Part shown: positions 1,498 to 19,882 of the stretch, piece after piece | How the letters are laid out: each line of letters opens with the position of its first letter | How positions within the stretch are numbered: position 1 is the stretch's first letter | Assembly: GCA_049283735.1 (NCBI GenBank) | Contig: JBAPWO010000071.1 | Coordinates: 19,221-83,220, forward strand | Direction: 5' to 3' | Source: Candidatus Dormiibacterota bacterium | GTDB lineage: Bacteria; Chloroflexota; Dormibacteria; Aeolococcales; Aeolococcaceae | Length of the DNA: 64,000 nucleotides | Made by a program: the position numbers and the translations under genes | The notes under the pieces: model-generated | Database searches by the model: none | Seen by the model: only the letters and a program-made list of their open reading frames with translations | What the model was told of the DNA's origin: nothing

Positions 1498-1566
1498 GCG
1501 AAACATTCCCATGTCGCGAATGGGAGAATCGCGAAGAGACGAGGGGCACTCGGAGGGTTATCAGCA

Positions 1567-3141
<1,575 letters not shown>

Positions 3142-3151
3142 GCCCGCAGAG

Positions 3152-5098: not shown

Positions 5099-5616
5099 AG
5101 GGCGATCTCTCGATAGATCGAACCGAACTCGCGCCGCGCGGCTGCGACCAGCCGGGCTGCCGCCTCGGGTGAGCACTCGAGCGCCCTCGACATCTCGTTG
5201 TAGTCGAGACCGCACAGATCGCGGAGCAGCAGGGCCGCCCTTCGGTCGAAGCCGAGCATGGCAAGGGCGCGCTTGACGGTGTTGATGCGACCGGCGCTGA
5301 CGTCGTCGACCTCCACGCGAATCGATCCGGAGCCACGCCGGAACATCCGGCCGATGCCCTGAGGCCGGGGTGGAAAGCGCTGACCGTGCCGGCATGCGCG
5401 GGTCACCGCGCGATACAGGGCCGCCCGGCCGTCGACGCGCAGACGCGCGGGTGGGTAGCGGCTCGCGTGATGGATGCCGCCGGCGACGTACGCCACCGCG
5501 TCGGCCTGGTGATTCACCAGGTGGGTGGCAAACGTGACGAGATCATCGAGCTGCTCGCGTGCGGTAGCGGCAAGCTCGCGCGCCTCGGGAGCGATGTGTG
5601 CTGAGACGTTGATCAT
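5095..5616 (-). CDS. ECF (sigma-70 family) RNA polymerase sigma factor
   Basis: Region-4 HTH LRDLCGLDYNEMSRALECSPEAAARLV; region-2-like LYRAVTRACRHG. Start chosen at MINVSAH; the exact start is uncertain. Confidence 0.65.
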   Translation of the reverse strand: MINVSAHIAPEARELAATAREQLDDLVTFATHLVNHQADAVAYVAGGIHHASRYPPARLRVDGRAALYRAVTRACRHGQRFPPRPQGIGRMFRRGSGSIRVEVDDVSAGRINTVKRALAMLGFDRRAALLLRDLCGLDYNEMSRALECSPEAAARLVAAARREFGSIYREIAL

Positions 5617-5690
5617 GACGTTTGCGCTGTTGGGGCGCGGAGTACGGTCGAAGAATAGCCGGGACTCCGCTCTGCGGTCAAGGCGCGAGA

Positions 5691-6428
5691 TCAAGACGAA
5701 GTGTGCACCAACTCCCCACCGGTGATCCCGGACGCCCGGTCGAGCCCGGCTCGGAGCCACGCGGCCGCGGGCATGCCGATGTCGGCGACCCAGATGGCGC
5801 CGGCGTGACTCGCGCCGTCTCCTCGCTGCAGGCCGCGCTTCATCGCGGTCAGCGTGCAGGTCAGGGCGGCCTGCACGGTCGGGTCGAACGCCTCCCCGGT
5901 CGTGGCATCCAGACCGCTCGGAACGTCGACGCTGAGGACGGGAACGCCGGACTCGTTGAGCGTTCGGATCGCGCTCCCCTGGGGCTCGCGGGGCGCGCTG
6001 CGCAGCCCGGTGCCGAGGATGGCGTCAATCACCAGTTCGGCTCCCCTCACGACGCTGCGTGCGGCTGCTGGATCCGCGTCGACAACCACGTCGACGCCGC
6101 AGGACCGCGCCGACACGACGTGATCGCGCACGACACCGGTCACCCGCGCCTCATCGCCGAGCACGAGCGCCCGTACCGCACATCCCCAGGTGACGAGATG
6201 TCTCGCGGCGACCAGCCCGTCGCCTCCGTTGTTGCCATAGCCGGCGACAACGCCGACACCGGACGGCCGCCCCAGATGGCGCCACGCACACCGCGCAACC
6301 TGCCATCCGGCGATCTCCATGAGTTGAAGCGTGGACACGCCGCACTCCACGGCCGCGGCGTCGAGGCGCGCCACGTCCTCCGACGTCAGCTCGCCGAGCC
6401 CTCCGTCGATCCCGGGGCTCGCGCTCAC
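5691..6428 (-). CDS. nnrE: NAD(P)H-hydrate epimerase (YjeF N-terminal domain)
   Basis: GYGNNGGDG motif, about 245 aa, no carbohydrate-kinase half. ATGA overlap with the upstream gene. Confidence 0.8.
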   Translation of the reverse strand: MSASPGIDGGLGELTSEDVARLDAAAVECGVSTLQLMEIAGWQVARCAWRHLGRPSGVGVVAGYGNNGGDGLVAARHLVTWGCAVRALVLGDEARVTGVVRDHVVSARSCGVDVVVDADPAAARSVVRGAELVIDAILGTGLRSAPREPQGSAIRTLNESGVPVLSVDVPSGLDATTGEAFDPTVQAALTCTLTAMKRGLQRGDGASHAGAIWVADIGMPAAAWLRAGLDRASGITGGELVHTSS

Positions 6429-7195
6429 GCCAGCTCGACCTCCACCCTGTCACCCGCGCGCGGACCACCGGCAGCGGCGGCACCGGTACCGAGGCCGGCG
6501 ATCTCGAGGTGGCCGGCGCTGCCGATCAACGCGCCCGATCCGGTGGCGATCTGCGCGTATGTCGCAACCATGGCGGCCGAGCCGCCACCCGGCCAGATGA
6601 CCGAACGGACGGCTGCGCCACCGAAGTCGTCGGCGCGGATGGTTGTGATCGCGTTGCCGAAGTGGTCGACCACGACGACCCTCCCGGTGATGCGGGTGCC
6701 CACCCGCTCCGCGAAAGCGCCGGCGAGGACGACCGGGTCGTCGATCGGATCGCCGGCCACGTCGAACCGTTCCTTTGATGACAGCTCCGCCGCGAAGGGC
6801 GCGAAGACGTCGCGACCGTGGAACGTCGGCGACGCGTCCCGCGCGATGTCGATGCTCACGGCCCGACGATCGCCCGGCGGCGTCTCGTCCCAGAGGTACG
6901 AAACCAGACCGTTGTCCGGAGCGACGCAGCGGATGCTGCCCACCTTGATGGCAATTGCGCGCCGCTTCGTGCCGACGCCCGGGTCGACCACTGCGCAGAA
7001 CACCGCACCTCCGCTGAAGGCGCGCGCCAGCGCCTTGAGCTGGTACGCCCCCGCGAGCACATCTCCAAAAGGAATCCCATGCGTTCCCTCGACACAGATG
7101 GCGTGCGGGTCGACACGCATAGCAGCGCCGGTGAGCGCCGCCGCATATGCGTCGTCGCGTCCAAAGTCGGTGACGAAGACGATCGGCTGCCGCAT
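6425..7195 (-). CDS. SAM hydroxide adenosyltransferase family protein (DUF62, SAM hydrolase)
   Basis: MRQPIVFVTDFGRDDAYAAALTGA N-terminus typical of DUF62. The tracked ORF runs to 7381, but the 62-aa leader is Ser/Thr/Ala-rich and atypical for the family, so I start at 7195. Confidence 0.7.
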   Translation of the reverse strand: MRQPIVFVTDFGRDDAYAAALTGAAMRVDPHAICVEGTHGIPFGDVLAGAYQLKALARAFSGGAVFCAVVDPGVGTKRRAIAIKVGSIRCVAPDNGLVSYLWDETPPGDRRAVSIDIARDASPTFHGRDVFAPFAAELSSKERFDVAGDPIDDPVVLAGAFAERVGTRITGRVVVVDHFGNAITTIRADDFGGAAVRSVIWPGGGSAAMVATYAQIATGSGALIGSAGHLEIAGLGTGAAAAGGPRAGDRVEVELA

Positions 7196-7220
7196 GGCGG
7201 ACTTCGCTACCGTACCAGCG

Positions 7221-7613
7221 ATGGAGAATCCGCCGAGCGCTCCCGAGCAGGCACCGGTGGCGGCGGCCACCGAGGACCGCGCGCGCCGAAGCCGGCCGGT
7301 CTGGGGGATGCCGGTCGCGGTGATCGCGCTGGTTGTGATCGTGGTGCTGTTCGTTGTCGGCTTCACCGGGCTCTTCGCCAACCCGGTGCGATCGGTGAGC
7401 TCCGACGGGACTACGACGCTCTCAGGAAGCTTCGAGCCCTACCAGTGCAACCCGACGAGCTGCGACGGGTACATCTCCGCCGGGGCACGCAGCGTGTTCG
7501 TGGTCTTTCCGCACGGATGCGCACCGCCTCAGCGCGCCGCGACAATCACCGTCGCCGGCAAACCCGCGCCGGATCTCGGCAACGCCTCGTACCGGGCGAC
7601 CGCCTGCCCCTGA
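7221..7613 (+). CDS. putative small membrane protein (one TM helix, Cys-containing C-terminus)
   Basis: MENPPSAPEQ...PVWGMPVAVIALVVIVVLFVVGFTGLF...CNPTSCDGY, embedded in a long spurious + ORF. An alternative ATG at 7194 overlaps the divergent DUF62 start. Confidence 0.25.
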   Translation: MENPPSAPEQAPVAAATEDRARRSRPVWGMPVAVIALVVIVVLFVVGFTGLFANPVRSVSSDGTTTLSGSFEPYQCNPTSCDGYISAGARSVFVVFPHGCAPPQRAATITVAGKPAPDLGNASYRATACP

Positions 7614-7637
7614 ACGGCTACTCCCAGCGGAGGCTCT

Positions 7638-8180
7638 TCACGCGGCGGGTGCGATCCCTGTCAGGCGCCATCCACGATGGGCCACCAGCCAGCCCCCATC
7701 AGCCACCTCGTGAGCCTCGTCGTCCGCGGCCGTGTCGACCGCCGGGTCGCGCTCGAACGTCCAGTCCTGGGTACCCGAGGTGCTGCCGTTGATGCTGAAA
7801 CGCACGACCGCTCGCTCGCGACCGTTCGTGACCATTGCCGCGGTGACTTCCGCCGACGCGATGTCCGCATCCAGCCCGGGCGCGCCATCGGTGTACGCGT
7901 CCTGCAGCACCCGAAACGCATCTCTGGCGATCAGCAGAAAGCGATCGGGGCTGAATTCGGGGTCAACCCGAGTCACCGACGCGAGATCGAGGCCCGGTAC
8001 GGCTGCTTCGCCGCGTTCGTGAAACTCACGGTCGAGGTCGGTGAGCATCGTGGCGTCGAGCGCGTCGAGTTGCGCTGCGTCGGCGTCACGTTTGGCGAGA
8101 CGGCTCCCGATCCCGGTGACGTGCAGGAATCCGGAGCCGAGTGACTCCGCGAGGGAGTGGTCTGGCTGCGCGTCGCTCAT
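7638..8180 (-). CDS. hypothetical protein, Tim44-like-domain candidate
   Basis: 180-aa ORF with high GC3. The ARDAFRVLQDAYTDG segment resembles the conserved core of bacterial Tim44-like domains. Confidence 0.4.
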   Translation of the reverse strand: MSDAQPDHSLAESLGSGFLHVTGIGSRLAKRDADAAQLDALDATMLTDLDREFHERGEAAVPGLDLASVTRVDPEFSPDRFLLIARDAFRVLQDAYTDGAPGLDADIASAEVTAAMVTNGRERAVVRFSINGSTSGTQDWTFERDPAVDTAADDEAHEVADGGWLVAHRGWRLTGIAPAA

Positions 8181-8296
8181 GGAGATACCTCTGAAACCGG
8201 ATTCGAAGCTCGAATCTACTCAGGGCCGCTCCGTGCCAGTCCGGGTGTCGCCGGGTTGTAGCCGATCGTTGATCGAGTCATCGCGACTGTCAGATA

Positions 8297-8331
8297 TAGA
8301 AAAGAGCGGCCCGGGAACCCCGGACCGCCCT
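8297..8331 (-). terminator. intrinsic terminator downstream of groEL
   Basis: Minus-strand hairpin GGGCGGTCCGGGG-TTC-CCGGGCCGCTC followed by TTTTCTATAT, 25 nt past the groEL stop. Confidence 0.4.
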
Positions 8332-8355
8332 TTCAGGAATCGGATCAGTTACCGA

Positions 8356-9966
<1,611 letters not shown>

Positions 9967-10020
9967 GGTTCCTCCTGGTTTGATCCTCTAGCCTAGGGTT
10001 CCAGGAGCTAGTTTAGCACT

Positions 10021-10074
10021 CGGGTGGTCTGACTGCTAGCGGGTGACGGGGACGAGTGCTAAACGACGGCCGCC
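10021..10074. promoter_or_regulatory. CIRCE-like HrcA operator with atypical spacing
   Basis: Perfect inverted repeat GTTTAGCACTC ... GAGTGCTAAAC, whose core matches the CIRCE arms TTAGCACTC/GAGTGCTAA. It lies 55-110 nt upstream of the groEL start, but the spacer is 32 nt instead of 9. Confidence 0.45.
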
Positions 10075-10131
10075 GGATCGCACCACCGCTGGTGCGATCC
10101 GGAATGGCCGGCCATTCCTCTCGAAACCCGG

Positions 10132-10326
10132 TCAGCGACTAGGGTTCTTGACGTGGCCTTCGGTGTCGTCCTCGTCAGGCGTCGCCCGAGGGTAAACGGA
10201 GGGCTGCTCTGCGGGGTCGGCGCTCCTGTTTACGAACTTGTGTCCGGAGGTGTCCTCTTCGTCTTCGTCGGTCTCGCTGCCGTGGACCCCCGGGGCTGCC
10301 TGCTCGTCGGCCTTGTCCGTGCTCAT
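10132..10326 (-). CDS. small acidic hypothetical protein (64 aa)
   Basis: MSTDKADEQAAPGVHGSETDEDEEDTSGHKF...; high GC3; sits between crp and groEL on the same strand. Confidence 0.3.
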   Translation of the reverse strand: MSTDKADEQAAPGVHGSETDEDEEDTSGHKFVNRSADPAEQPSVYPRATPDEDDTEGHVKNPSR

Positions 10327-10479
10327 TGCCTGTCTCCTGTGGCGGCTGGGCCGCTGCTGTTGTGTTGCCCACATTCTGCGGAATCGAGATGGGGGAGTCA
10401 GTCGTCCAGCTGACAGCTTCCCTGTCGGCGTTCTGACACGGCGGGGCAGCGACGACGGCGCAGGCAGGAGCCGGCGATA

Positions 10480-11175
10480 TCAGTCGTGCTGGCCTGCTCT
10501 GCGTTGCAGCAGTTCCGGCTTCCGGATCACAATGCGCCGGCCGTCCAGCTCGACATACCCCAGCCGCTCAAAGGCGTTGAGGACCTGGTTGACGCTCTGG
10601 CGCGAACCGCCAACCATGTTGGCGAGGTCCGACTGGGTCAGATGCAGGTCCAGCGCCCGTCCCCCCGGTACGGGGGTGCCGCGCTCGTCCGCGAGGCGGA
10701 GCAGAAGTTTCGCGACGCGACCGTGCAGGTCCAGGAACACCAGGTCGGCGGCCTGGTCGGTAAGCCGGCGCACCATCGTTCCCAGCGACCGCAGGAGACG
10801 GTCGACCAGCTCGGGCGAACCCCGAAGCGCTTCCAGCAACGCAGTTCGGCTGATCAGCAACACTGTCGTGGCTTCAACCGCCGCGGCCGATGCCGACCTC
10901 AGGCCACCATCGACCGTGGGCAGCTCGCCGAACACCGATGACGGTTCCAGGGTCACGAGCAGCATCTCGTCGCCGTCAGGCGAGCTCCGGTACACCTTGA
11001 CCAGACCGGTGACGACAACACACAGTGCGTCACCGGCGTCGTCCTCACGGAAGATGACCTCTCCGCGCCCATACGACCGCCGGACCCCCTTCTCGGCAAG
11101 CCGCTGCACCGCGTCCGGCGGAAGCGTCCCAAAGAGGGAGGTGTTCTGCAGGAGCGCCTCATCGCCGCTGGTCAT
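10480..11175 (-). CDS. Crp/Fnr-family transcriptional regulator (cNMP-binding plus HTH)
   Basis: Starts MTSGDEALLQNTSLFGTLP with GGGAGG upstream. cNMP-binding beta-roll GEVIFREDDAGDALCVVVTGLVKV; C-terminal HTH SQSDLANMVGGSRQSVNQVL. Trimmed from the tracked ORF. Confidence 0.85.
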   Translation of the reverse strand: MTSGDEALLQNTSLFGTLPPDAVQRLAEKGVRRSYGRGEVIFREDDAGDALCVVVTGLVKVYRSSPDGDEMLLVTLEPSSVFGELPTVDGGLRSASAAAVEATTVLLISRTALLEALRGSPELVDRLLRSLGTMVRRLTDQAADLVFLDLHGRVAKLLLRLADERGTPVPGGRALDLHLTQSDLANMVGGSRQSVNQVLNAFERLGYVELDGRRIVIRKPELLQRRAGQHD

Positions 11176-11251
11176 TCGAGGTGCCTCCCTAGTCATCCCG
11201 TTTACGGGCGCGCTCCGATGGCGCCGGCGAATTGTAGAGTGCCGGAACACC

Positions 11252-12001
11252 ATGGGTGATCGCGATTCGACGAGAGACGTGCTGGCGGATCTGACGCAGC
11301 TCGCGGCCGACCTCGGTCCGGTGCTCCGCCCCCGCCGCGACGAGGAGTTTCTGCAGGCAATCGTCGAAACCGCGCGCCTCGTCTTCGACGCCGCCGCCTG
11401 CTCGATCGCGCTCTTCGACGAGCGCGAGGAGGAGCTCGAGTTCCGTGTCGCCGCTGGGAGTGGCGCCGAGGCGACCATCGGCCTGCGTATCCCCGCAGAT
11501 CGCGGGATCGCGGGCTGGGCGCTCATGTCCGGACAGTCGATCGCCGTCGACGACGTCCGCCAGGATCCGCGCTTCGCCGCAGATGTCGCCGAGCGCACCG
11601 GCTACGTGCCCAACGCGATCATGGCCATGCCGCTGGAGAGCGAGCGCCAGACCTTCGGCGTTATCGAGGTGCTCGACCGTCAGCGGCGTGGCGGCGAAGG
11701 CGTCGACGACATGGAGTTGCTCGCCCTGTTCGCGCGACAGGCGACCCTTGCGGTCGAGACATCGCGGATCTTCTCGGACCTCGGACAGGCGATCCTCGAG
11801 TCGGCCGCGCTCGCGACCCAGCGAGACGACCTTCGCACCGCCCTCGAGCAGCGAGCGCGTCAGGCACCGCGACCCCAGGCGGAGCTTGCCGAGCTGGCGC
11901 TGCTCTTCCACGATCTCGGCGTCCTCGGGCCGGAGGAACGGCGTGTCGCCGCGCGCATTGCGGACGACTTTCTCGCGTACGCACGCAAGCAGCGCCGTTG
12001 A
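11252..12001 (+). CDS. GAF-domain protein
   Basis: MGDRDSTRDVLADL..., then GAF core AACSIALFDEREEELEFRVAAG...IAGWALMSGQSIAVDDVRQDPRF. Divergent from crp; its stop overlaps the next start (ATGA). Confidence 0.75.
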   Translation: MGDRDSTRDVLADLTQLAADLGPVLRPRRDEEFLQAIVETARLVFDAAACSIALFDEREEELEFRVAAGSGAEATIGLRIPADRGIAGWALMSGQSIAVDDVRQDPRFAADVAERTGYVPNAIMAMPLESERQTFGVIEVLDRQRRGGEGVDDMELLALFARQATLAVETSRIFSDLGQAILESAALATQRDDLRTALEQRARQAPRPQAELAELALLFHDLGVLGPEERRVAARIADDFLAYARKQRR

Positions 12002-12804
12002 AACCGGCCTGGTCGTGGCAGTTCGACCGGGCGACCCTGCAGCGTGTGCAGGCATCGCTCCCCACGGCGATCACCCGCGAGTGGGCGTGGGAGGGCAGCA
12101 CCGGGGCAGGCGTCAAGGTGGCGGTCATCGACAGCGGGATCGATGCTGCTTATCCCGGAGTCGGGCCCCTCGCCGGTGGTGCGGTGGTCGTCGCCGATGC
12201 CGACGCGCCACGAGGCGCTCGTGTGATCGAAGGGCCGCACGAGGATCTGTTCGGCCACGGCACGGCGTGTGCCGCGATCATTCGCCAGGCCGCGCCGGAT
12301 GCCGAGCTGTACAGCATCAGGGTCCTTGGCGAACGGCTGACGGGACGCGGCATCGTGTTCGCCGAGGGTATGCGCTGGGCGCTCGCCGAGGGCATGCAGG
12401 TGCTCAATATGAGCCTGAGCACGTCGCGCGCAGACTACTTCGGGGTGTTCCATGAGATCGCCGACGACGCCTATTTCCAGGGAGCGATGGTCGTCTGCGC
12501 CGTCAACAACGTCCGGGCGCCAAGCTATCCGTCGCAGTACGCGTCGGTGTTTTCCGTCGCGGCCCACGAGGGTCGGGACCCATTTCGCCTGGACTACAAC
12601 CTGTCGCCGCCGGTTGAATTCGGAGCGCCTGGGATCGACCTCGAGGTGGGCTGGCTCGACGGGAGGACCATTCGCGCGACCGGCAACAGCTTCGCGGCGC
12701 CTCACATCGCCGGATTGATCGCTCGAATCCTCGGCAAGCACCCGGCGCTGACTCCGTTTCAGATGAAGACGGTCCTGATGGCGTTGGCGGACAACGCGAG
12801 CTAG
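11998..12804 (+). CDS. subtilisin-like serine peptidase (S8 family), no signal peptide
   Basis: Catalytic-triad motifs VAVIDSGID (Asp), HGTACAAII (His) and GNSFAAPHIAGL (Ser). Confidence 0.85.
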   Translation: MKPAWSWQFDRATLQRVQASLPTAITREWAWEGSTGAGVKVAVIDSGIDAAYPGVGPLAGGAVVVADADAPRGARVIEGPHEDLFGHGTACAAIIRQAAPDAELYSIRVLGERLTGRGIVFAEGMRWALAEGMQVLNMSLSTSRADYFGVFHEIADDAYFQGAMVVCAVNNVRAPSYPSQYASVFSVAAHEGRDPFRLDYNLSPPVEFGAPGIDLEVGWLDGRTIRATGNSFAAPHIAGLIARILGKHPALTPFQMKTVLMALADNAS

Positions 12805-12862
12805 GTCCGCGTCTGCCGCTTGTCGCCAGGCTGACAGACAATGCACCCCGTTTTCGCTGACA

Positions 12863-13297
12863 ATGCGCGTCATGACCGACAAGAAAACACTGGTCAACCT
12901 GCTGAGTCGCAATCGACTCTTCGACGAGCTCAACAAGAAGGATGTCCTCGCGCTGATCGACTCGGCGAAGGAAGTCGACCACCGCGAGGGTCAGATGATC
13001 GTGGTCGAGGGGCAGCCTGGAGTCGGTTTTCATCTGCTCCTTGAGGGCACGGCGATCGTGAGCAGAAATGGCCGAAAGCTCCGGACGCTGGGGCCTGGCG
13101 AGACGTTCGGCGATATCGCGGTCATCGACGGAGGACCTCGCAGTGCGTCGGTGCAAGCAGCGACCCAGCTCCGCACCCTGTCGCTGCCGCCATGGGAGTT
13201 CAAACCCCTCCTCCTGGAACATCCCCGGATCGCCTACAGGCTGCTCGTCAAGCTCTGCTCGCTGCTCCGAGAAGCCGAGAAGCGGCCGCCGCTCTAG
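12863..13297 (+). CDS. stand-alone cyclic-nucleotide-binding domain protein
   Basis: 144 aa. cNMP-binding beta-roll IVVEGQPGVGFHLLLEGTAIV...LGPGETFGDIAVIDGGPRSASV. Confidence 0.8.
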   Translation: MRVMTDKKTLVNLLSRNRLFDELNKKDVLALIDSAKEVDHREGQMIVVEGQPGVGFHLLLEGTAIVSRNGRKLRTLGPGETFGDIAVIDGGPRSASVQAATQLRTLSLPPWEFKPLLLEHPRIAYRLLVKLCSLLREAEKRPPL

Positions 13298-13410
13298 TCG
13301 CCTCGGGCTGCGTTGTGGTCATGCGCCGGTCGGCGAGGGCCCGGTCGAATTCAAGGTGAGCTCCACTTACCTATGATGCACCGCGTCCACTGTGGAGTTG
13401 GGAGAACGCC

Positions 13411-13836
13411 ATGACAAGTCGGAGCGCGCAGGTCAACTTGCTCAGCGGCGTCGCGCTCTTCGCCGGGCTGACCAAGAAGGAGGCAAGGTTCGTCCTCCAA
13501 TTCATGCGCGACTACGACTATCCGGCTGGGAAGGTCATTGTCGAAGAGGGCGAGATGGGTGGACGTTTCTTTCTCATCGTGTCGGGCACAGCAGTGGTAA
13601 CGCGACGCGGACGTCGTATTCGCAGACTCGGTCCCGGCGATTCGTTCGGAGACATCGCGCTCATCGATGGAGGTCCACGATCAGCGACGGTGGCGGCGGA
13701 AACACCCGTCAGCACCTTGTCGCTGGCAGTCTGGAATTTCAAGGCAACGCTGCTCGAGAGTCCGAGCATCACCTACAAGCTGCTGCTGGCCCTTTGCGGA
13801 AGACTGCGTGACGCGGAGTTGAGCGCGCCGATCTGA
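13411..13836 (+). CDS. stand-alone cyclic-nucleotide-binding domain protein (paralogue of 12863-13297)
   Basis: 141 aa. LGPGDSFGDIALIDGGPRSATV... and the same C-terminal LLLALCGRLRDAE as its neighbour. Confidence 0.8.
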   Translation: MTSRSAQVNLLSGVALFAGLTKKEARFVLQFMRDYDYPAGKVIVEEGEMGGRFFLIVSGTAVVTRRGRRIRRLGPGDSFGDIALIDGGPRSATVAAETPVSTLSLAVWNFKATLLESPSITYKLLLALCGRLRDAELSAPI

Positions 13837-13859
13837 TCCATCGAGCAACCCTCGGCTGG

Positions 13860-14550
13860 CTTGTCGCTGGGAGGCTGTCGCCGAGAAATGCCCGGGCAGC
13901 GCCGCGGACACCCAGCGCGCGGGGAGGTTCCGGAAGGCCCAAGCCGGCCGCGAGTTGAAGCGCCTGCTCGGCGAGCGTGATCGCCTCCGCGTAGGCGCTG
14001 TCATCGCCCTTCCGGCCTGCGAGTTCTACATACGCGGTGACGAGCTCTGCGCCCGGCTCCTCGGCTTCGAGCAACAGCAGCCCTCGGCGATGAGATCCCT
14101 CGAGGTCGGATCGCCGGCCATCTGAAGCACCGTCGACAGCGTGGTCAGCGTCCGCGCGACGGCCAGGGTGGCACCCGCATCCCGATACATCTCGAGCGCG
14201 GCCCTCGCCCCAGCCTGGCGTCCCGGTACGTGCGCCGCCTAGGCCCAGCGTTCCAGCAGGGCAGCCCGCTCGCGGTGGTTCTCAGGGGCGAGCTCGAGCG
14301 CCCGGGCGAAGCTTTCAGCTGGGGCCGCTCGAACTCCCGGCCCACGAGCGGCGTCGAACTCGTTCGGATGACGTCGGCGCCGAAGCGGGCCTGGGCGGCC
14401 AGTGGAGGTCAGACAGGGAGCGGCTCTGATTTCCCTTTGACTTGCACCGCCTCGGAGGCGATCGAAGATGAGCACGCGCTCGGTCTGGCGGTAGGTCGGC
14501 TCTGACACCGCCACACCGTTGATCGGGGCGATGCCCTGCAGGCGTGACAC
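13860..14550 (-). pseudogene. truncated remnant (C-terminal TPR region only) of a large transcriptional-regulator gene
   Basis: One continuous minus-strand frame gives TPR-like sequence (...ALELAPENHRERAALLERWA*GRHV...ARAALEMYRDAGATLAVARTLTTLSTVL...AYAEAITLAEQALQLAAGLG). It is interrupted by an in-frame TAG at 14239-14241 and has no N-terminal ATPase or DNA-binding part. Confidence 0.4.
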
Positions 14551-14921
14551 GGCAACTTTCCGCCGCCCTTCGCGCGCTCGGTGCGCGCGTCTACGTATCG
14601 TCGACCGAGACGCTTCGACTTGAACAAGACGGAACGTCTTTGGCCGATGCTTCGGTGTGGAACCCTGCGACGATGTTCGGCGGGCTGGACATCACGTTCA
14701 TCCCTGCTGGAACCACGGGATACGCCGACCTCGCTGAGCGTGCGCAGGGCATCGACATCGGCGGAGTGGTCGTCAGGGTGGCTGCTCTAGAGGACATCGT
14801 CAGGAGCAAGGAAGCAGCGAGCCGCGAGAAGGATCGCGTGGTCCTCCCGGCGCTTCGACGTCTTCTCGAGCGTACCGAGGACGAGCCCTACCAGAACACG
14901 CAAGGTGAAGCTTCGAAGTGA
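14544..14921 (+). CDS. hypothetical protein, possible nucleotidyltransferase-fold (MNT-like) protein
   Basis: 125 aa. The C-terminal VAALEDIVRSKEAASREKDRVVLPAL resembles the R-x-KD helix of minimal nucleotidyltransferases. No clear GS motif; weak call. Confidence 0.3.
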   Translation: MTRQLSAALRALGARVYVSSTETLRLEQDGTSLADASVWNPATMFGGLDITFIPAGTTGYADLAERAQGIDIGGVVVRVAALEDIVRSKEAASREKDRVVLPALRRLLERTEDEPYQNTQGEASK

Positions 14922-14927
14922 TGACAG

Positions 14928-15185
14928 TCAGGTCTGGATCTTCCTGCGCAGCCGCTCCACGGACTCGGCAAGGTCCCACACCATCTCGAGCGCAAGGTTG
15001 AGCTCGCTCGCCGTAGGCGGAAGCTCGTACACACGGTGATGACACGCGTTTGAAAGCGACTGCCAGGTCAGGGTCGCCCGGCCGCCAAGCTCTCGGTCGT
15101 TGAGCATGTCGCCGACGCAGAGCAGCTGACACCGCGTCGACGTTCGCTCCAGCCCCGGCGCCGTCACATCCCAGAGTCGCGCCAT
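14928..15185 (-). CDS. small hypothetical protein, last gene of the RloC-like operon
   Basis: MARLWDVTAPGLERTSTRCQLLCVGDMLNDRELGG... The reading frame stays open to 15422, overlapping the RloC-like 3' end, so the true start may lie upstream via a non-ATG codon. Confidence 0.3.
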   Translation of the reverse strand: MARLWDVTAPGLERTSTRCQLLCVGDMLNDRELGGRATLTWQSLSNACHHRVYELPPTASELNLALEMVWDLAESVERLRRKIQT

Positions 15186-15325
15186 GGCGAGTTCGAGTCC
15201 CTGTCGCGCGAGCAGCGCCGCTGCACGGGGCCAGAGGCCGGCGGTCGCAATGTCGTCGGCCCGGATGAGATCGCGCGCGGCTGAGACGAGCGCATGCGCG
15301 TCAGCGGTCGAGTTCGTGCGCGGCG

Positions 15326-17752
15326 TCAACGTTCGAGCACCTTCTTCGTCAACTGCTCGACGCTGCGTATGAAGTCCTTCGCGTCGCCGTACAGCTTCCC
15401 GCTGTGCGTTCCGCGATTGCACTCCCTGACCGCATCGACCGCCCAGGGGTGATGCTTCATCAGAAACGCGGTCACGTCGCCGCTTCGTTCCGGGTCATGC
15501 AAGAGCGCAAGTGCCAGCCACATGTTCAACGTCGTCGGCGTGGCGAGGATCGCGCGCACCGCCGCATACGTCTTGCCCTCGCGAAGCAGGCGCCGCGTGG
15601 CCGCAAGCGAGGACGCAGCCTCGAGTGCGAGCCTGCAGAACCCCGGGATAACGCGGAGCGCCTCTACGGGGACATCTCGGCTCATCGCAACCGCGAAGGC
15701 GTCGTCGATGTATCGCTGCACCGGATCCTGGATTCGGCGCAACTCGACGACCGACTGCTCACGCCGCACCACCTCGACAACGGTGGCGGCGATGTCGAGC
15801 GCACTCATCGCGTCGGCAAGACGCGTGTCGTGGGTGAGCACGACCACCTGCCGTTCCCGTGCGGCGCGCGCGAGCACGGTGGCGAGCCCGGCCACCTTGG
15901 ATGGATCCATCGCCTGCACCGGGTCATCGATGACCACGAACCGGAACGGCGACTCGGGCATCGATGCGCGGGGCAGGAACAACGACAGCGCCAGGCAGTT
16001 GAGCTCCCCCTGACTCATCACGCCGAGCGCCGAGCCATCCTCACCGTCGACCTTCACGTCGAGCGAGAGTCGGCGCTGCGTCTGAGCGCCCATCAGGCGC
16101 AGATCGCCGAGCGAGACGTTGCTGTCCTGGCGCAGCTCGGTCCAGTTCTCCTGCACGGCGCCTGCGATGGGACGAAACCGTTCCTCGCGCAGCTCGTCAT
16201 GCGCGTCCCTGAGCCATCGTTCCGCGTCTTTCAGGCGTAGGGCTTCGCCCTCGGCCTCCTTCGCCCTGCGCCCGAGCGGCAGCCACAACGCAATCGCATC
16301 GGCGGCGGGCCGCCAGGCGTGTTCCAACCGGTCGAGCTCGGCTGCGGCCGCCCTGCGCAGGTCGCCGACCGCGGCGATGAGGGGCGATCCGTGCGTCTCG
16401 AGGTGGCCGGCCAGCGCGAGCGCATCGTCGTCGTCGGCCACAGCAGCCCATCGCTCCCAGAGCTCGATCACGGGCGCGACATCGATGCCGGCGCCGGCGC
16501 CATCGCGAAGCGCAACCGGCGGCGCGGTCACCAGCTGCCGAGCCTGGCGCATCGCATTGGCGAGCATGTCGCGACCCTTGCGCACCGCATCCGCCGCTGC
16601 GCGCAGCGCGACCACCTGGTCGCGCGCCTGCACACGCCACTGGTAGGTCAGCACGCCCTCGGTGCCACAGACGGGACAGCCTTCTCCCTCCGCATGTGCG
16701 TGCACGTCGAGCGCCTGTTGCAGGAGTGAGGCGACCTCGTGCGCCCGGCCGGCGTCGGTACCTCGCAACCGCTCACCGGCCGCCTGCGCCTCGCGCAGGG
16801 CTGCGACCGCTTCGTTGAGTCGCTCTCGATCGAGCACGGGGAGCCCTGCCAGGTCGCGCAGCTTGCGAAGCACGCTGCGCTCGTCGCTCTCGGCCGCGCC
16901 GCCGATCGTACGCGCGACGGCGTCGAGATCCCAGGCCTTCGCGGAGAGCGAAGCAGCCACCAATCCCGCCCGTTCATCGGTGGTCCGGTCGAGCAGCGCG
17001 CGCAGCGCCGGCAGTGCGTCGCGCGCCTGCTTGACCAGATGCTCTCGATCGAGGCGCGTCCGCTGCAGCACCTGCTGCGCGGTTGCGAGGTCGCCGAGAC
17101 CGAGGATGCCGGCGAGCGCGTCGTAGAGCTTCGATTGCTCGCGATCGAGCGCGTGTTCGAGCTCGTTGTGTGAAAGGAGCGGCGGGTAGCCGGCCAGCTG
17201 CGGCGCCCAACCCAGCGCCTCGGCCGGCGCGGGCTTGCCATCAATGGTCAGTGTGGAGGCGTCAACCCCATCGGCTTCCTTCCAGATGCGGGCCACGTCG
17301 AGCGGCTGCTTGCGTCCGTCCACGATGAAGCGTGCGGCGACCCGCGTGTGCCGGTGGTGCAGGTTCTGCCAGCCGTCGCGCCACACCTTGACGCGCTGCT
17401 CCCAGCGCTGATTGGTGCCGAGCAGGACCATTTCGAGCGCCTCCGAGAACGAGGACTTCCCGGAGCCGTTGCGACCGACCACCAACGTGAGCCCCGGACC
17501 CGGGTCGATCGCGAGCGTCGTGGGCGGGCCGATCCCGCGGAAACCCTCGACCTCGATGGCGGTGAGATACACCCCACTGGGTGCCGCCCCCGCGCTACGG
17601 CTCGTCGGGGCGGAACCAGGCTCGCCGCGGAGCGCGGCCTCGACAGGCTCCGCGCCCTGGAAGGCGGCGAGGATCAGGTCCGCGGCCCCGCCCGCCGGCG
17701 GATTCGAGTCGATCCGATCAACCACCAGGCCGAGCAGCGCGGCGTCAGGCAT
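15326..17752 (-). CDS. RloC/PrrC-like protein: Rad50/SbcC-type ABC ATPase with CxxC zinc hook and C-terminal HEPN-like (anticodon-nuclease-like) domain
   Basis: 808 aa. Walker A LVVGRNGSGKSS, a long coiled coil containing EGEGCPVCGTEG, ABC signature MSQGELNCLALSLFL, Walker B FRFVVIDDP, H-loop LTHD. About 190 further residues carry R...N-x3-H (VRECNRGTH). Confidence 0.65.
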   Translation of the reverse strand: MPDAALLGLVVDRIDSNPPAGGAADLILAAFQGAEPVEAALRGEPGSAPTSRSAGAAPSGVYLTAIEVEGFRGIGPPTTLAIDPGPGLTLVVGRNGSGKSSFSEALEMVLLGTNQRWEQRVKVWRDGWQNLHHRHTRVAARFIVDGRKQPLDVARIWKEADGVDASTLTIDGKPAPAEALGWAPQLAGYPPLLSHNELEHALDREQSKLYDALAGILGLGDLATAQQVLQRTRLDREHLVKQARDALPALRALLDRTTDERAGLVAASLSAKAWDLDAVARTIGGAAESDERSVLRKLRDLAGLPVLDRERLNEAVAALREAQAAGERLRGTDAGRAHEVASLLQQALDVHAHAEGEGCPVCGTEGVLTYQWRVQARDQVVALRAAADAVRKGRDMLANAMRQARQLVTAPPVALRDGAGAGIDVAPVIELWERWAAVADDDDALALAGHLETHGSPLIAAVGDLRRAAAAELDRLEHAWRPAADAIALWLPLGRRAKEAEGEALRLKDAERWLRDAHDELREERFRPIAGAVQENWTELRQDSNVSLGDLRLMGAQTQRRLSLDVKVDGEDGSALGVMSQGELNCLALSLFLPRASMPESPFRFVVIDDPVQAMDPSKVAGLATVLARAARERQVVVLTHDTRLADAMSALDIAATVVEVVRREQSVVELRRIQDPVQRYIDDAFAVAMSRDVPVEALRVIPGFCRLALEAASSLAATRRLLREGKTYAAVRAILATPTTLNMWLALALLHDPERSGDVTAFLMKHHPWAVDAVRECNRGTHSGKLYGDAKDFIRSVEQLTKKVLER

Positions 17753-18251
17753 CCGGTGCCGATGGCGTGCTGGTCACACGTTTCAGGACGATCTCGTCGG
17801 GCGTCCTCCCGTGGTCGACGAAGTAGGTCGCGCGCCTCCCGTCCTTCTCGAGGTGGACGAGCGACCCGACCTTGAAGGTGTCGGCGGGCATGGTCAGCGG
17901 GGGCGTCCGCGACGGGCGGTCGACGTGAGGAGGTATGGCGGCCGGCGATTGCGGCGTCGCCACCGACGGCATGGGAACCATTGCGGCGCCGGGAGCGGCC
18001 GCGCCGCGCTGAACGTGCCGGCGGTGCACGGTCACGCCGACGGCGATCGCGGTGAGCACCAGCACCGGGACGCTGATGTACCAGTACGCGATACCGAGGG
18101 CGAGGACCACGACCAGGACGACGAAGCCCACGCAGCCGACACCGCCGGTCGCGTGGGCGGCCTGTCGGGCGGTGTGATGGGGTCGCCGCCCGTAGGTCGA
18201 AAGGCCCGCCCAGAATCCTCCCGGGAGACGATGGCCGAGGTAGAAGCGCAC
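17745..18251 (-). CDS. membrane protein (2 TM helices plus small C-terminal soluble domain), first gene of the RloC-like operon
   Basis: TM helices VGCVGFVVLVVVLALGIAYWY and ISVPVLVLTAIAVGVTV. C-terminal FKVGSLVHLEKDGRRATYFVDHGRTPDEIVLKRV. Its stop overlaps the RloC-like start by 8 nt (ATGCCTGA). Putative GTG start at 18251. Confidence 0.4.
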   Translation of the reverse strand: MRFYLGHRLPGGFWAGLSTYGRRPHHTARQAAHATGGVGCVGFVVLVVVLALGIAYWYISVPVLVLTAIAVGVTVHRRHVQRGAAAPGAAMVPMPSVATPQSPAAIPPHVDRPSRTPPLTMPADTFKVGSLVHLEKDGRRATYFVDHGRTPDEIVLKRVTSTPSAPDA

Positions 18252-18920
18252 GGCGCCATTCTGGCTCCCGCACGCCGTCACCTTCGCAGCCCGCCTTTGG
18301 CGACCGACAATGACCGTGTGCCCGAATCGACCGCCGCCCCGCCGCTGACAGAGCGCTTCGCTCACGCGTTGACCTTCTCCTGGCAGGTGCACGGCCGGCA
18401 GGTCCGGAAGAAGACCGGGATCCCGTATATGGCTCACGTCCTGGCCGTGTGCGCCCTGGCCCTCGAGCACGAGGCGGATGAGGACGTCGCCATCGCCGCG
18501 CTCCTCCACGACGCGGTGGAGGACTCGGAGGATGGCGCCGCGACCCGCGACCAGATCGAAGAACAGTTCGGCGACCGAGTGGCTCGGATCGTGATGGCCT
18601 GCAGCGACGCGATCGCCGTGCCCGGTCAGCCGAAACCGGACTGGCGGCAGCGCAAGGAGACGTATCTGCGCCACCTCGCCGACGCCGACGAGGACGCGCT
18701 GCTGGTGTCCGCCTGCGACAAGGTCCACAACGCCGGCTCGATCGTCGCCGATCTGCGCGCCGAGGGCGATGCCGTCTGGCAGCGATTCACGGTCAAGGAT
18801 CCGCGCCTCCAGCTCTGGTACTACGCCGGTGTCACGGAGATCCTCATGCGCAGGCTGCCCGGGCCGTTGACCGCGAAGCTCGGGCGCATCGTCGACGAAT
18901 TGAGCGCGCTGGCCGCCTGA
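18231..18920 (+). CDS. HD-domain phosphohydrolase (RelA/SpoT-like HD_4 family)
   Basis: YMAHVLAVCALALEHEADEDVAIAALLHDAVEDS, i.e. H...HD...D metal ligands. ATG at 18231 chosen; a GTG near 18316 is an alternative start. Confidence 0.7.
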   Translation: MAEVEAHGAILAPARRHLRSPPLATDNDRVPESTAAPPLTERFAHALTFSWQVHGRQVRKKTGIPYMAHVLAVCALALEHEADEDVAIAALLHDAVEDSEDGAATRDQIEEQFGDRVARIVMACSDAIAVPGQPKPDWRQRKETYLRHLADADEDALLVSACDKVHNAGSIVADLRAEGDAVWQRFTVKDPRLQLWYYAGVTEILMRRLPGPLTAKLGRIVDELSALAA

Positions 18921-19844: not shown

Positions 19845-19882
19845 GTTCCGATCGGTCGGCGGTCCACCCGTATGATCGAATC

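Follow-up and report, generated by a model that had tools for sequence, protein, structure and literature searches.

A putatively active subtilase of peptidase family S8 and a GAF-domain protein are encoded side by side in the window (the whole 64,000-nucleotide stretch of DNA analysed here), within a locus that we read as a reduced version of a module, conserved across several phyla, for cyclic-nucleotide-controlled cytoplasmic peptide processing; sequence comparison leaves this reading about evenly balanced. The gene content and domain identities of the locus, the co-conservation and coupling of the GAF and S8 genes, and the linkage in both directions between this pair and a small motif-bearing peptide are established here. 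No family model or paper describing the module was found.

Organization of the locus

The five genes that an earlier note had reported, encoding a Crp/Fnr-family regulator, a GAF protein, an S8 peptidase and two stand-alone cyclic nucleotide (cNMP)-binding CAP_ED proteins, are all present, and Pfam confirms their domains as named (Table 1). The gene for a small acidic protein with DDxEG(H/Q) repeats had been missed; its ATG is preceded at 7 nt by AGGAGA and the gene is followed by a hairpin at 10075–10100. GGGAGG is found upstream of the Crp ATG at 11175, and the CAP_ED2 ATG has GGGAGA 6 nt upstream. CAP_ED1 probably starts at its second ATG, which would yield a protein of 141 aa, since its alignment with CAP_ED2 and the homologues begins at residue 4.

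Table 1. Features of the cluster in window coordinates
Feature	Position	Strand	Description
Small acidic repeat protein	10132–10326	-	64 aa, two motif copies
Crp/Fnr-family regulator	10480–11175	-	231 aa; divergent from GAF-S8
Extended -10-like element TGTAGAGT	11233–11240	+	conserved 5' of GAF
GAF protein	11252–12001	+	249 aa; Pfam GAF 67 bits
S8 peptidase	11998–12804	+	268 aa; Peptidase_S8 87 bits
CAP_ED1, stand-alone cNMP-binding	12863–13297	+	Pfam 58 bits; probable start 12872
CAP_ED2, stand-alone cNMP-binding	13411–13836	+	141 aa; Pfam 62 bits
Degenerate stretch, no intact gene	13840–14540	-	fragmented ORFs only

The CAP_ED genes had been described as lying in visibly lower-GC DNA, which holds in direction, although the difference is modest (GC 0.623 for CAP_ED1 and 0.606 for CAP_ED2 versus 0.680 for the window; GC3 0.79 and 0.71 versus 0.81–0.83 for the neighbours) and insufficient for claiming horizontal transfer. 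At the position of the degenerate stretch that follows CAP_ED2, the relatives L003–L006 carry one or two genes for cyclase-STAND-TPR proteins, and the stretch may be a remnant of the gene of this type found 3' of CAP_ED in close relatives. Marginal tblastn matches (E 0.03 and 0.15) connect it with the TPR part of the cyclase-STAND protein of locus L086. The nearest cyclase in the window is a REC-cyclase at 35941–37257, and a defence-like ABC ATPase is located 1.5 kb downstream of the cluster.

The S8 peptidase is a minimal subtilase

With a score of 87.3 bits against Pfam PF00082 (gathering cutoff, 21.8), the protease is assigned to peptidase family S8. Its triad D45/H87/S231 and the oxyanion residue N171 align to D32, H64, S221 and N155 of subtilisin BPN' and are invariant in the homologue alignment; a set of 114 sequences retains H, S and N without exception. 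The match covers the mature core only, residue 32 of S8 being aligned to residue 19 of mature subtilisin BPN', and neither a signal peptide, an I9 propeptide or a Ca-A loop nor a hydrophobic N-terminal segment was found in S8, for which an upstream extension of the reading frame is impossible. The N-terminus harbours KPAWSWQF, which is conserved among homologues as (K/R)PAWSWQF, and the closest PDB matches are calcium-independent delta75-83 variants of subtilisin BPN'. The protein is best read as a minimal cytoplasmic, putatively active subtilase without a pro-domain, and the earlier claim that it lacks a secretion signal withstands the search for a cryptic signal or pro-peptide. A classical secreted subtilisin is rejected on the same absence of signal peptide and I9 pro-domain; a mycosin is likewise rejected, with 96.6 bits to TIGR03921 (cutoff, 278.75) and no ESX genes in the neighbourhoods examined.

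Homologues of S8 number in the thousands, span 268–286 aa and share 67–90% identity, the value between phyla being 67%. Cultured carriers include Geodermatophilus, Motilibacter, Lentzea and Quadrisphaera. Such conservation is unusually high for a peptide-maturation protease and counts against a role in peptide processing. The substrate cleft is near-invariant among the 114 sequences, and a basic residue (K or R) occupies position 103 in 112 of them, which fits the invariant acidic motif of the peptide described below. No S8 column separates loci with H-type from those with Q-type peptides, so covariation lends no support to direct recognition. S8 and GAF show high conservation and a broad chromosomal distribution that spans phyla. 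A match to S8 was found in no phage record, and plasmid matches were confined to five large, non-mobilizable replicons, all below 50% identity.

GAF and S8 are coupled across phyla

Among the compared loci, many of which derive from metagenome-assembled genomes (MAGs) and a few of which are mutual duplicates, GAF immediately precedes S8 in 78 of 80 genomes counted at species level, which come from Dormibacterota, Actinomycetota, Chloroflexota and other groups, so that the arrangement is far beyond chance. The two genes mostly overlap by 4 nt, with an NTGA overlap in 38 of 63 scorable loci and a spacing between -13 and +17 nt in most others. The overlap in the window, previously given as ATGA, is in fact TTGA (TTG at 11998, TGA at 11999–12001); the S8 start codon is TTG in close relatives too, and ATG or GTG at the same position in others. 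In a sister clade (45–46% identity for S8 and 47–50% for GAF) the order is reversed to S8-GAF, again with a 4-nt overlap. Co-conservation with start/stop overlap thus extends over at least four phyla and both gene orders, and the earlier pairing of the two proteins survives this check.

The TGTAGAGT element lies 11 nt upstream of the GAF ATG, for which a Shine-Dalgarno sequence is absent. At the same distance, TGTAGAGT, TGTACAGT or nnTAGAGT is present in 10 of 10 Dormibacterota-type relatives with intergenic regions of 64–162 bp, a comparison that left out locus L008 (spacer of ~340 bp). The proximity of this -10-like element to the ATG, together with the missing Shine-Dalgarno sequence, suggests that the GAF-S8 transcript may be leaderless or near-leaderless.

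The GAF protein comprises a cNMP-type GAF core (approximately residues 30–170) followed by a four-helix C-terminal tail, which can be aligned to the initial helices of HD-GYP domains (LFHDLG). Profile searches against the PDB yield CyaB2 (1ykd, 7.9e-34) as the best match, followed by PmGH (4mcw, 2.3e-25), where the alignment extends into the HD motif, as well as Lcd1-cAMP (5w10) and PDE2/5/10/6 (including 1mc0 and 2zmf). The AF2 model (pLDDT 83) is most similar in Foldseek to 5w10 (with cAMP), 4mcw and 1ykd. By sequence and modelled fold, the protein belongs to the cAMP/cGMP-binding GAF group, and a cyclic nucleotide is the predicted ligand. The classic NKFDE motif is not kept, the residues aligned to it in CyaB2 being D-R-x-D-M, and binding is therefore not assured. 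With the HD domain reduced to a few helices, phosphodiesterase activity is not expected.

A small acidic repeat protein is linked to the pair

The 64-aa acidic protein contains two motif copies, EEDTSGH29 and DDTEGH58. The same protein, at 100% identity, is annotated in a Dormibacterota MAG (P0121), and no match to a Pfam or NCBIfam family was found. In this type of peptide the motif, DD(T/V/A)EG(H/Q), is present in 2 to 10 copies with a period of ~15 residues and a consensus of D98%-[TVA]-E82%-G100%-[HQM], followed by basic residues. In 55 of 88 loci, small ORFs bearing the motif are found no further than 4 kb from S8, where their density is 0.096 per kb compared with 0.010 per kb further away (~10-fold), and an HMM scan for the peptide gives matches in 39 of 83 sources. 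The linkage also holds in reverse: 73 of 80 metagenome loci picked by the peptide alone carry a cluster gene, and the peptide-picked contigs of at least 8 kb contain GAF (10 of 13), S8 (9 of 13) and Crp (12 of 13).

The peptides show the layout of a multi-copy precursor cut at repeated sites by cyanobactin-like logic, a short motif in tandem that is separated by variable segments and has a dedicated protease alongside; the cleavage itself is predicted, and the acidic protein is a putative substrate or precursor for S8. As the most informative partner, it points to peptide processing rather than to general regulated proteolysis; from the earlier proposal of a regulated-proteolysis or effector module we retain the intracellular protease with a sensor partner and set general proteolysis aside. 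Dormibacterota-type orthologues of the peptide also have conserved non-motif segments, and the window peptide, with such segments and only two motifs, could be a folded or binding partner and not a precursor.

At locus L085 the motif, as DDDVAGH, is situated at the leader/core junction, with an NHLP-type leader on one side and an aromatic/basic core on the other, and the same locus encodes a LanL-like enzyme together with an ABC exporter that carries a cNMP-binding domain. Precursors of the RiPP type also flank S8-GAF in the sister loci of Streptomyces and Miltoncostaea. Modification enzymes are present in some relatives (LanL-like in L085, radical SAM in L170); in the window, the precursor-like peptide has none in its vicinity, and the locus does not qualify as a RiPP biosynthetic cluster, which requires at least one such enzyme besides the precursor.

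cNMP-binding and cyclase partners in relatives

The Crp protein has a cNMP_binding domain (78.2 bits) followed by HTH_Crp_2 (66.5 bits), which identifies it as a Crp/Fnr transcription factor, and carries the canonical FGE...RSA residues of the phosphate-binding cassette. It is not an equivalog of E. coli CRP (79.7 bits; cutoff, 266), scores below other equivalog cutoffs too, and no E. coli-type CRP site was found within the cluster. Of 47 well-flanked loci, 40 have a Crp homologue no more than 8 kb away from S8.

CAP_ED1 and CAP_ED2 are 50% identical (pairwise BLASTP, 7e-45). CAP_ED1 contains the phosphate-binding cassette FGDIAVIDGGPRSAS, and its orthologues (43–79% identity) are found near S8 in many loci; overall, stand-alone CAP_EDs are the least conserved partner, present in 19 of 47 well-flanked loci. 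The proposal that they act as decoys finds no support, and the existence of two proteins in which a cNMP-binding domain is fused to a full-length orthologous GAF suggests that the CAP_EDs work with GAF rather than as sinks. In PADLOC they match Pycsar TIR effectors (1e-13). Membership in Pycsar is rejected, since the matches cover only the cNMP-binding part of the effectors and the CAP_EDs are single-domain proteins of 141 aa.

An MFS-CNB exporter, in which the transporter is fused to a cNMP-binding domain, is encoded in 34 of 47 well-flanked loci and a cyclase-STAND protein in 22 of 47, the relatives having one to three tandem, diversified Zn-ribbon-cyclase-AAA_16-TPR proteins. Both the MFS-CNB and the cyclase-STAND-TPR genes are absent from the window, which has lost or never had these parts. 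Along with the acidic repeat protein, they are recurrent partners that the earlier note overlooked.

Proposed mechanism and alternative explanations

As a comparative-genomic inference, a cytoplasmic protease with a ligand-sensing partner in a cNMP neighbourhood is well supported, and the interpretation given in the earlier note is, as a whole, partly supported. Beyond this, we infer the identity of the ligand and how it gates S8, as well as the cleavage site, peptide export and the biological role. Translational coupling would ensure that S8 and GAF are made in fixed stoichiometry, and GAF and the stand-alone CAP_EDs would gate S8 on a cyclic nucleotide. S8 would then cut the acidic protein, with DD(T/V/A)EG(H/Q) as the recognition site, T/V/A occupying the S4 pocket and H/Q/M the S1 pocket, and cleavage predicted after H29 and H58. 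The Crp-family regulator would constitute the transcriptional arm, while the MFS-CNB and cyclase-AAA_16-TPR genes in most relatives suggest that the processed product may be exported and the signal made locally. The lack of an exporter and of a nearby cyclase in the window, and of an E. coli-type CRP site in the cluster, speaks against this reading.

A gated S8 could instead degrade or clip endogenous regulatory proteins, with the acidic protein as a pseudosubstrate inhibitor, adaptor or buffer. This accounts equally well for the coupled genes, for a protease located in the cytoplasm and for the cNMP context, and the very strong conservation of S8 suits a housekeeping regulatory protease. The absence of an exporter from the window copy and the conserved non-motif segments of the Dormibacterota-type peptide also favour this alternative. 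PDE6 GAF domains bind a disordered inhibitory subunit, and PDE6 structures are among the fold matches of GAF. We nevertheless consider general proteolysis rather unlikely, given the efflux MFS-CNB or ABC-CNB transporter in most loci, the leader/core position of the motif in L085, the RiPP-type precursors flanking the sister-clade pairs and a repeat number of 2 to 10 that is typical of multi-copy precursors. It is also conceivable, if quite unlikely, that GAF is a trans-acting folding chaperone or inhibitor that replaces the I9 pro-domain, with no small-molecule gating and the cNMP genes acting only in transcription. An S8 without any pro-domain, strict coupling whichever the gene order and the unconserved NKFDE motif would fit such a role. 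However, removal of the Ca-A loop from subtilisin BPN' (delta75-83) makes folding independent of the pro-domain, and S8 naturally has no such loop; moreover, GAF is nearest to ligand-binding cNMP GAFs, and its fusions with cNMP-binding domains exist.

An anti-phage or conflict system, in which STAND-type cyclases sense the invader and a cyclic nucleotide activates the protease effector, possibly freeing toxic peptides, would have parallels in Pycsar, CBASS or the protease effectors of type III CRISPR. The diversified cyclase paralogues beside GAF-S8, the CAP_ED matches to Pycsar effectors and the defence-like ATPase are in keeping with this, but the PADLOC matches are to generic domains, a TIR or TM effector is absent, and the ATPase is not conserved with the module. 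With the chromosomal, highly conserved distribution of S8 and GAF across phyla and the scarcity of mobile-element matches, we regard defence as very unlikely. Hardly credible is an ordinary secreted or housekeeping subtilisin that lies near cNMP genes by accident: high-GC soil bacteria commonly carry S8 peptidases as well as cNMP-binding genes, yet S8 has neither signal peptide nor pro-domain, and a chance neighbour is already refuted by the GAF adjacency, the overlap and the loci selected through the peptide.

Comparison with known systems

Controlled peptide processing, the reading that we prefer, shares features with several described systems. In cyanobactin clusters (PatA/PatG and PatE), a subtilase processes a small ribosomal precursor by cutting at conserved short sequences, which are repeated and flank variable segments. 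In contrast, the module has no heterocyclase, macrocyclase or DUF domains, its recognition motif is not alike, and the GAF partner and cNMP context are not known from cyanobactin clusters; the window S8 fails the PatA/PatG model, for which the sister clade reaches 33 bits (cutoff, 421). The intracellular subtilisin protease (ISP) of Bacillus resembles S8 in being a cytoplasmic enzyme without signal peptide or classical I9 pro-domain and with a short conserved N-terminal extension. The extension differs, however (PAWSWQF in the window, LIPY/F in ISP), which sets S8 apart from ISP, as do the obligate GAF partner, the dedicated peptide neighbour and the missing Ca-A loop. The best NCBIfam match of S8 is QhpE, the leader peptidase of quinohemoprotein amine dehydrogenase and a minimal cytoplasmic subtilase of ~220 aa that trims a small ribosomal peptide leader; assignment to QhpE (NF049966) is rejected at 106.8 bits (cutoff, 165) with qhp genes absent, and QhpE has no GAF partner.

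The top sequence and fold matches of GAF, namely CyaB2, Lcd1, the PDE2/5/6/10 GAFs and PmGH, differ from it in that the window GAF stands alone, has a separate protease as output and lacks NKFDE. In PmGH (GAF-HD-GYP), the start of the HD-GYP domain aligns with the GAF tail, including the H-D dipeptide, although little of this domain is left in the window protein. The proposed logic of the module is shared with cyclic-oligonucleotide-activated defence proteases such as the SAVED-Lon protease CalpL and SAVED-CHAT, where a nucleotide second messenger switches on a cytoplasmic protease. Those systems employ SAVED/CARF sensors, other protease folds and messengers and defence-island genes, whereas the module has GAF and CAP_ED sensors, an S8 protease and class III cyclases.

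Clusters of the NHLP/Nif11 type include cNMP-binding, transport-associated proteins (NCBIfam TIGR03896), and L085 shares the NHLP-type leader. CRP-linked peptide-processing systems with a zincin metallopeptidase and FxSxx-type peptides have been described in actinobacteria (Kaur et al. 2020, PMC7159879, section 24). As in the module, these clusters and systems combine a rapidly evolving small peptide and its own peptidase with an exporter, STAND/TPR proteins and a CRP-like regulator, but the module uses S8 and GAF with DDxEG(H/Q)-repeat peptides, and the window has no modification enzyme.

The module is widespread in soil bacteria, yet undescribed. We tentatively suggest, as an improbable but consequential extension, that it forms a peptide-signalling circuit, in which the gated S8 would chop an unmodified tandem-repeat precursor into ~15-residue peptides, each ending in DD(T/V/A)EG(H/Q). 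The cNMP-binding domain of the MFS transporter would gate their release, the TPR arms of the STAND adenylyl cyclases would sense them, and feedback would close through cAMP and Crp. If true, such a circuit would represent a previously unrecognised class of pheromone or autoinducer in Dormibacterota, Actinomycetota and Chloroflexota.

Conservation of the GAF-S8 pair

The earlier note, working from sequence alone, had read the locus as a cNMP module with a ligand-gated intracellular protease, and the five genes to which it assigned domains are all present in the window (Table). The DNA has a GC content of 68%, and the nearest relatives are MAGs of Candidatus Dormibacterota, with S8 identities of 82-92% in the relatives' loci L001-L006. 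The overlap between the GAF and S8 genes is TTGA, with TTG as the S8 start codon, and not ATGA as had been proposed. The lower GC content reported over the CAP_ED genes exists, but amounts to only 6-7 points; horizontal transfer of these genes was rejected because this difference is too small. The true start of CAP_ED1 is probably at 12872. No E. coli-type CRP box is found in the cluster, and a scan of the whole window for TGTGA-N6-TCACA with up to two mismatches gave 9 matches against 15 expected.

Relatives of S8 are encoded in at least 543 species-level genomes. Among the closest 80 of these, found with the S8 alignment, an orthologous GAF gene lies directly upstream in 78; of the other two, one is truncated where its contig stops. 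The genes share an NTGA overlap in 38 of 63 scorable loci, with most others spaced by -13 to +17 nt. In a sister clade, which resides on large Miltoncostaea and Streptomyces replicons (identities of 45-46% for S8 and 47-50% for GAF), S8 precedes GAF with an overlap of 4 nt, such that the co-conservation that the earlier note had named as its own test is borne out in both gene orders. Together, co-conservation and overlap argue for a stoichiometric complex. An extended -10-like element (TGTAGAGT) is conserved 11 nt before the GAF ATG and is accompanied by no Shine-Dalgarno sequence, which suggests that the GAF transcript may be leaderless.

Coordinates of features in the window and in two sister-clade loci
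Feature	Position	Strand	Remarks
SAM hydroxide adenosyltransferase	6425-7381	-	no evident tie to module
groEL	8356-9966	-	
CIRCE-like inverted repeat	10013-10062		upstream of groEL; TTAGCACTC...GAGTGCTAA, spacer 32 nt
Perfect 10-bp inverted repeat	10075-10100		just 3' of motif peptide gene; GGATCGCACC/GGTGCGATCC
Acidic motif peptide, 64 aa	10132-10326	-	between Crp and groEL; good ribosome-binding site
Crp-family regulator	10480-11175	-	cNMP_binding and HTH_Crp_2 domains
GAF protein, 249 aa	11252-12001	+	GAF domain
S8 peptidase	11998-12804	+	Peptidase S8 domain
CAP_ED1, single-domain cNMP-binding	12863-13297	+	50% identical to CAP_ED2
CAP_ED2, single-domain cNMP-binding	13411-13836	+	50% identical to CAP_ED1
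Degenerate stretch	13840-14540		downstream of CAP_ED2; marginal similarity to TPR part of cyclase-STAND
Small ORF	14544-14921	+	next to 808-aa ATPase
Small ORF	14928-15422	-	next to 808-aa ATPase
ABC-type ATPase, 808 aa	15326-17752	-	SMC_N/AAA_21/AAA_15; PADLOC mad3, LmuB, HEC-01A, AriA, GajA
HD_4 domain protein	17412-18920	+	no evident tie to module
Zincin_2 metallopeptidase	19358-21007	+	no evident tie to module
Two HisKA_3 histidine kinases, then REC-class III cyclase	31668-37257	-	cyclase 35941-37257
GAF-GGDEF-EAL protein	41532-43877	+	second GAF-based second-messenger protein of the window
LigD (NHEJ ligase), full length	58277-61303	-	phosphoesterase, ligase, primase-polymerase domains
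L170, Streptomyces sp. NBC_00184 plasmid	834-7388		S8->GAF, radical SAM enzyme, 'aroma-sacti' peptide (8.6e-21), 1052-aa cyclase
L169, Miltoncostaea oceani	5408-10336		S8->GAF, sigma factor, NHLP-like peptide, MBL hydrolase, MFS transporter

The S8 protease and its GAF partner

The alignment of S8 to subtilisin BPN' spans the full length of S8 but covers only the mature enzyme; residue 32 of S8 corresponds to residue 19 of BPN'. Upstream extension of the reading frame is impossible and no hydrophobic N-terminus was found, which together uphold the claim that S8 has no signal peptide. Moreover, the N-terminus (K/R)PAWSWQF is kept in homologues of several phyla, and the annotated start, without signal peptide or I9 pro-domain, is therefore taken to be right. 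The catalytic residues D45, H87 and S231 and the oxyanion residue N171 are invariant. S8 belongs to a very large family with tight conservation: the best 120 homologues share 67-92% identity with it, the full-length ones spanning 268-286 aa and the few shorter ones being truncated gene calls. The best PDB matches, by sequence and by fold, are engineered calcium-independent delta75-83 subtilisins, and alignment to BPN' reveals that the natural S8 is devoid of exactly this loop (Ca-A). Removal of the Ca-A loop in the delta75-83 mutants renders folding independent of the pro-domain, and its absence here would fit a cytoplasmic enzyme.

When the GAF family profile (249 aa) is compared with the PDB, cNMP-binding GAF domains rank first, led by Anabaena CyaB2 (7.9e-34) and followed by the GAF-HD-GYP protein PmGH, the Lcd1 GAF (cAMP complex), PDE2, PDE5, PDE10 and PDE6; a Foldseek search with the AF2 model (pLDDT 83) returned the same list. 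The NKFDE signature is not kept in the profile alignment. Ligand binding by this GAF is probable. Long helices make up the C-terminal 80 residues and align with the first HD-GYP helices, including LFHDLG, and the protein thus looks like a GAF-HD-GYP relative cut down to the sensor and a stump. No GAF-S8 fusion was present among the best 150 matches from a search of 1.84 billion representatives, in which multi-GAF giants dominate. Two database proteins, P0293 (590 aa) and P0373 (791 aa), carry a cNMP-binding domain N-terminal to a full-length orthologous GAF with its tail, and thereby tie the function of CAP_ED to that of the GAF; Pfam gives no match for the 220-430 residues at their own N-termini.

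Recurrent partners of the pair

Called-gene contexts and tblastn identified further genes that recur near GAF-S8: a Crp-family regulator, an EntS/Mef-type efflux MFS transporter with a C-terminal cNMP-binding domain (MFS-CNB), usually directly upstream of GAF, and one to three Zn-ribbon-class III cyclase-AAA_16-TPR proteins (cyclase-STAND). Counts within 8 kb of S8 were taken in the 47 loci whose flanks each extend for at least 8 kb: GAF is found in 45, Crp in 40, the MFS-CNB exporter and the motif peptide in 34 each, cyclase-STAND in 22 and a stand-alone CAP_ED in 19.

Neither the exporter nor an adjoining cyclase-STAND gene was found in the window. The degenerate stretch downstream of CAP_ED2 gives marginal tblastn matches to the cyclase-STAND protein (E 0.03 and 0.15) and might conceivably be a remnant of such a gene; beyond it lie unrelated, defence-like genes. 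Among these, the 808-aa ATPase is probably a defence gene and is not co-conserved with GAF-S8. The REC-cyclase is the sole cyclase of the window and a possible source of cNMP for the module. On the other side of the cluster, the inverted repeat following the peptide gene is likely a terminator that parts it from groEL, and the usual spacer of a CIRCE element is 9 nt.

A motif peptide adjoining the pair

The 64-aa ORF between Crp and groEL contains two motif copies, EEDTSGH and DDTEGH, and has a 100% identical counterpart in a Dormibacterota MAG (P0121). In Dormibacterota, Actinomycetota and Chloroflexota, GAF-S8 is adjoined by small ORFs in which DD(T/V/A)EG(H/Q), with basic residues after it, is repeated 2-10 times in tandem at a period of ~15; their site and orientation differ by lineage. 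With a loose motif, such an ORF lies within 4 kb of S8 in 55 of 88 S8-centred loci, and its density is 0.096 per kb within this distance versus 0.010 per kb further out. In the reverse test, 80 metagenome loci were chosen by the repeat peptide alone, with an in-register repeat alignment; 73 hold at least one cluster gene, even though most contigs are 1-5 kb, and the 13 contigs of at least 8 kb contain GAF in 10, S8 in 9, and Crp and CAP_ED in 12 each. A protein search with the 64-aa peptide gave 5 matches, the query being short and the database very large, and the breadth of the family comes from DNA-level scans. Pfam and NCBIfam models gave no match to the peptide, and literature searches with the motif strings found only unrelated papers.

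Several MAG loci (L024 8498-9378, L028 8431-9378, L017 6868-7438 and L054 11565-11962) have the repeat-peptide gene divided between two frames, probably through assembly or frameshift errors in tandem DNA repeats, and the peptide counts are therefore underestimates. In one Actinomycetota lineage (L083/L084, 6218-7384), an HTH_23/rve_3 transposase-like gene sits between S8 and the repeat-peptide gene.

The motif as a candidate cleavage site

The third motif position is T, V or A and the last is H, Q or rarely M, whereas G is invariant at the putative P2. In the register that we infer, the variable positions would behave like subtilase P4 and P1 residues. The substrate cleft of S8 is nearly invariant among 114 sequences, with K or R at position 103 in 112 of them, which fits a motif that is invariantly acidic. 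Locus L085 has one copy of the motif, DDDVAGH, placed precisely where an NHLP-type leader meets an aromatic/basic core (HWAHATYYRTCRWWQQRIYWHRK). With scores of 1e-7 (TIGR04509) and 2.4e-6 (TIGR03793), this leader falls just short of both cutoffs. Also encoded in L085 are a LanL-like lyase/kinase, two methyltransferases and an ABC exporter that carries a cNMP-binding domain. The sister-clade S8-GAF pairs likewise sit beside RiPP-type precursors (Table). Among the 315 columns of the S8 alignment, none tells H-type from Q-type peptide loci, which counts against the motif being a cleavage site, yet this lack of covariation neither supports nor refutes direct recognition of the peptide by S8.

Discussion

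Gene content, linkage and domain assignments are observed, and we propose a mechanism to connect them. A cyclic nucleotide, probably cAMP, would be produced by dedicated cyclases and would control transcription through Crp, gate the protease through GAF and CAP_ED and, where the exporter is present, act on the cNMP-binding domain of the exporter itself. In the cytoplasm, the complex of GAF and S8 would cut small proteins that bear DD(T/V/A)EG(H/Q), each time after the final H/Q, with predicted cuts after H29 and H58 in the 64-aa protein of the window. This cNMP-gated picture as a whole, in which the ligand, gating, cleavage, export and biological role are presumptive, seems to us about evenly balanced between right and wrong.

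An ordinary subtilisin that adjoins cNMP genes by chance is refuted by the GAF adjacency, the overlap and the peptide-selected loci. Alternatively, the regulated proteolysis may be directed at cellular proteins, the repeat protein then serving as pseudosubstrate or inhibitor; we regard this alternative as unlikely. That GAF is a surrogate pro-domain without ligand gating appears somewhat less likely again. A defence system built on STAND cyclases, with the protease as effector, is improbable, since PADLOC returns generic domain matches only, phages yield no match to S8 and conservation of the proteins is unusually high.

The logic of the GAF-S8 module resembles that of cyanobactin PatA/PatG-PatE processing, QhpE, Bacillus intracellular subtilisins and nucleotide-activated defence proteases. 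Similar in logic, too, are the systems for peptide processing described by Kaur et al. (PMC7159879), in which CRP and STAND/TPR proteins take part. The window genes pass none of the corresponding family models. Our literature search found nothing on GAF-coupled S8, DDxEG(H/Q) peptides or the module. We class the module as a putative peptide-processing cassette under second-messenger control.

Soil Actinomycetota, Chloroflexota and uncultured Dormibacterota possess many adenylyl cyclases and cNMP-binding proteins, the outputs of which are mostly unknown. If the proposal is true, cAMP would gain a proteolytic, peptide-producing output beyond Crp-dependent transcription, and DD(T/V/A)EG(H/Q) would be defined as a protease recognition motif, usable to mine genomes for a class of small peptides. 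The GAF-S8 pair also occurs within RiPP-like clusters and may therefore serve as a portable leader peptidase under second-messenger control, which would be of interest for natural-product discovery and for the engineering of ligand-switchable subtilisins.
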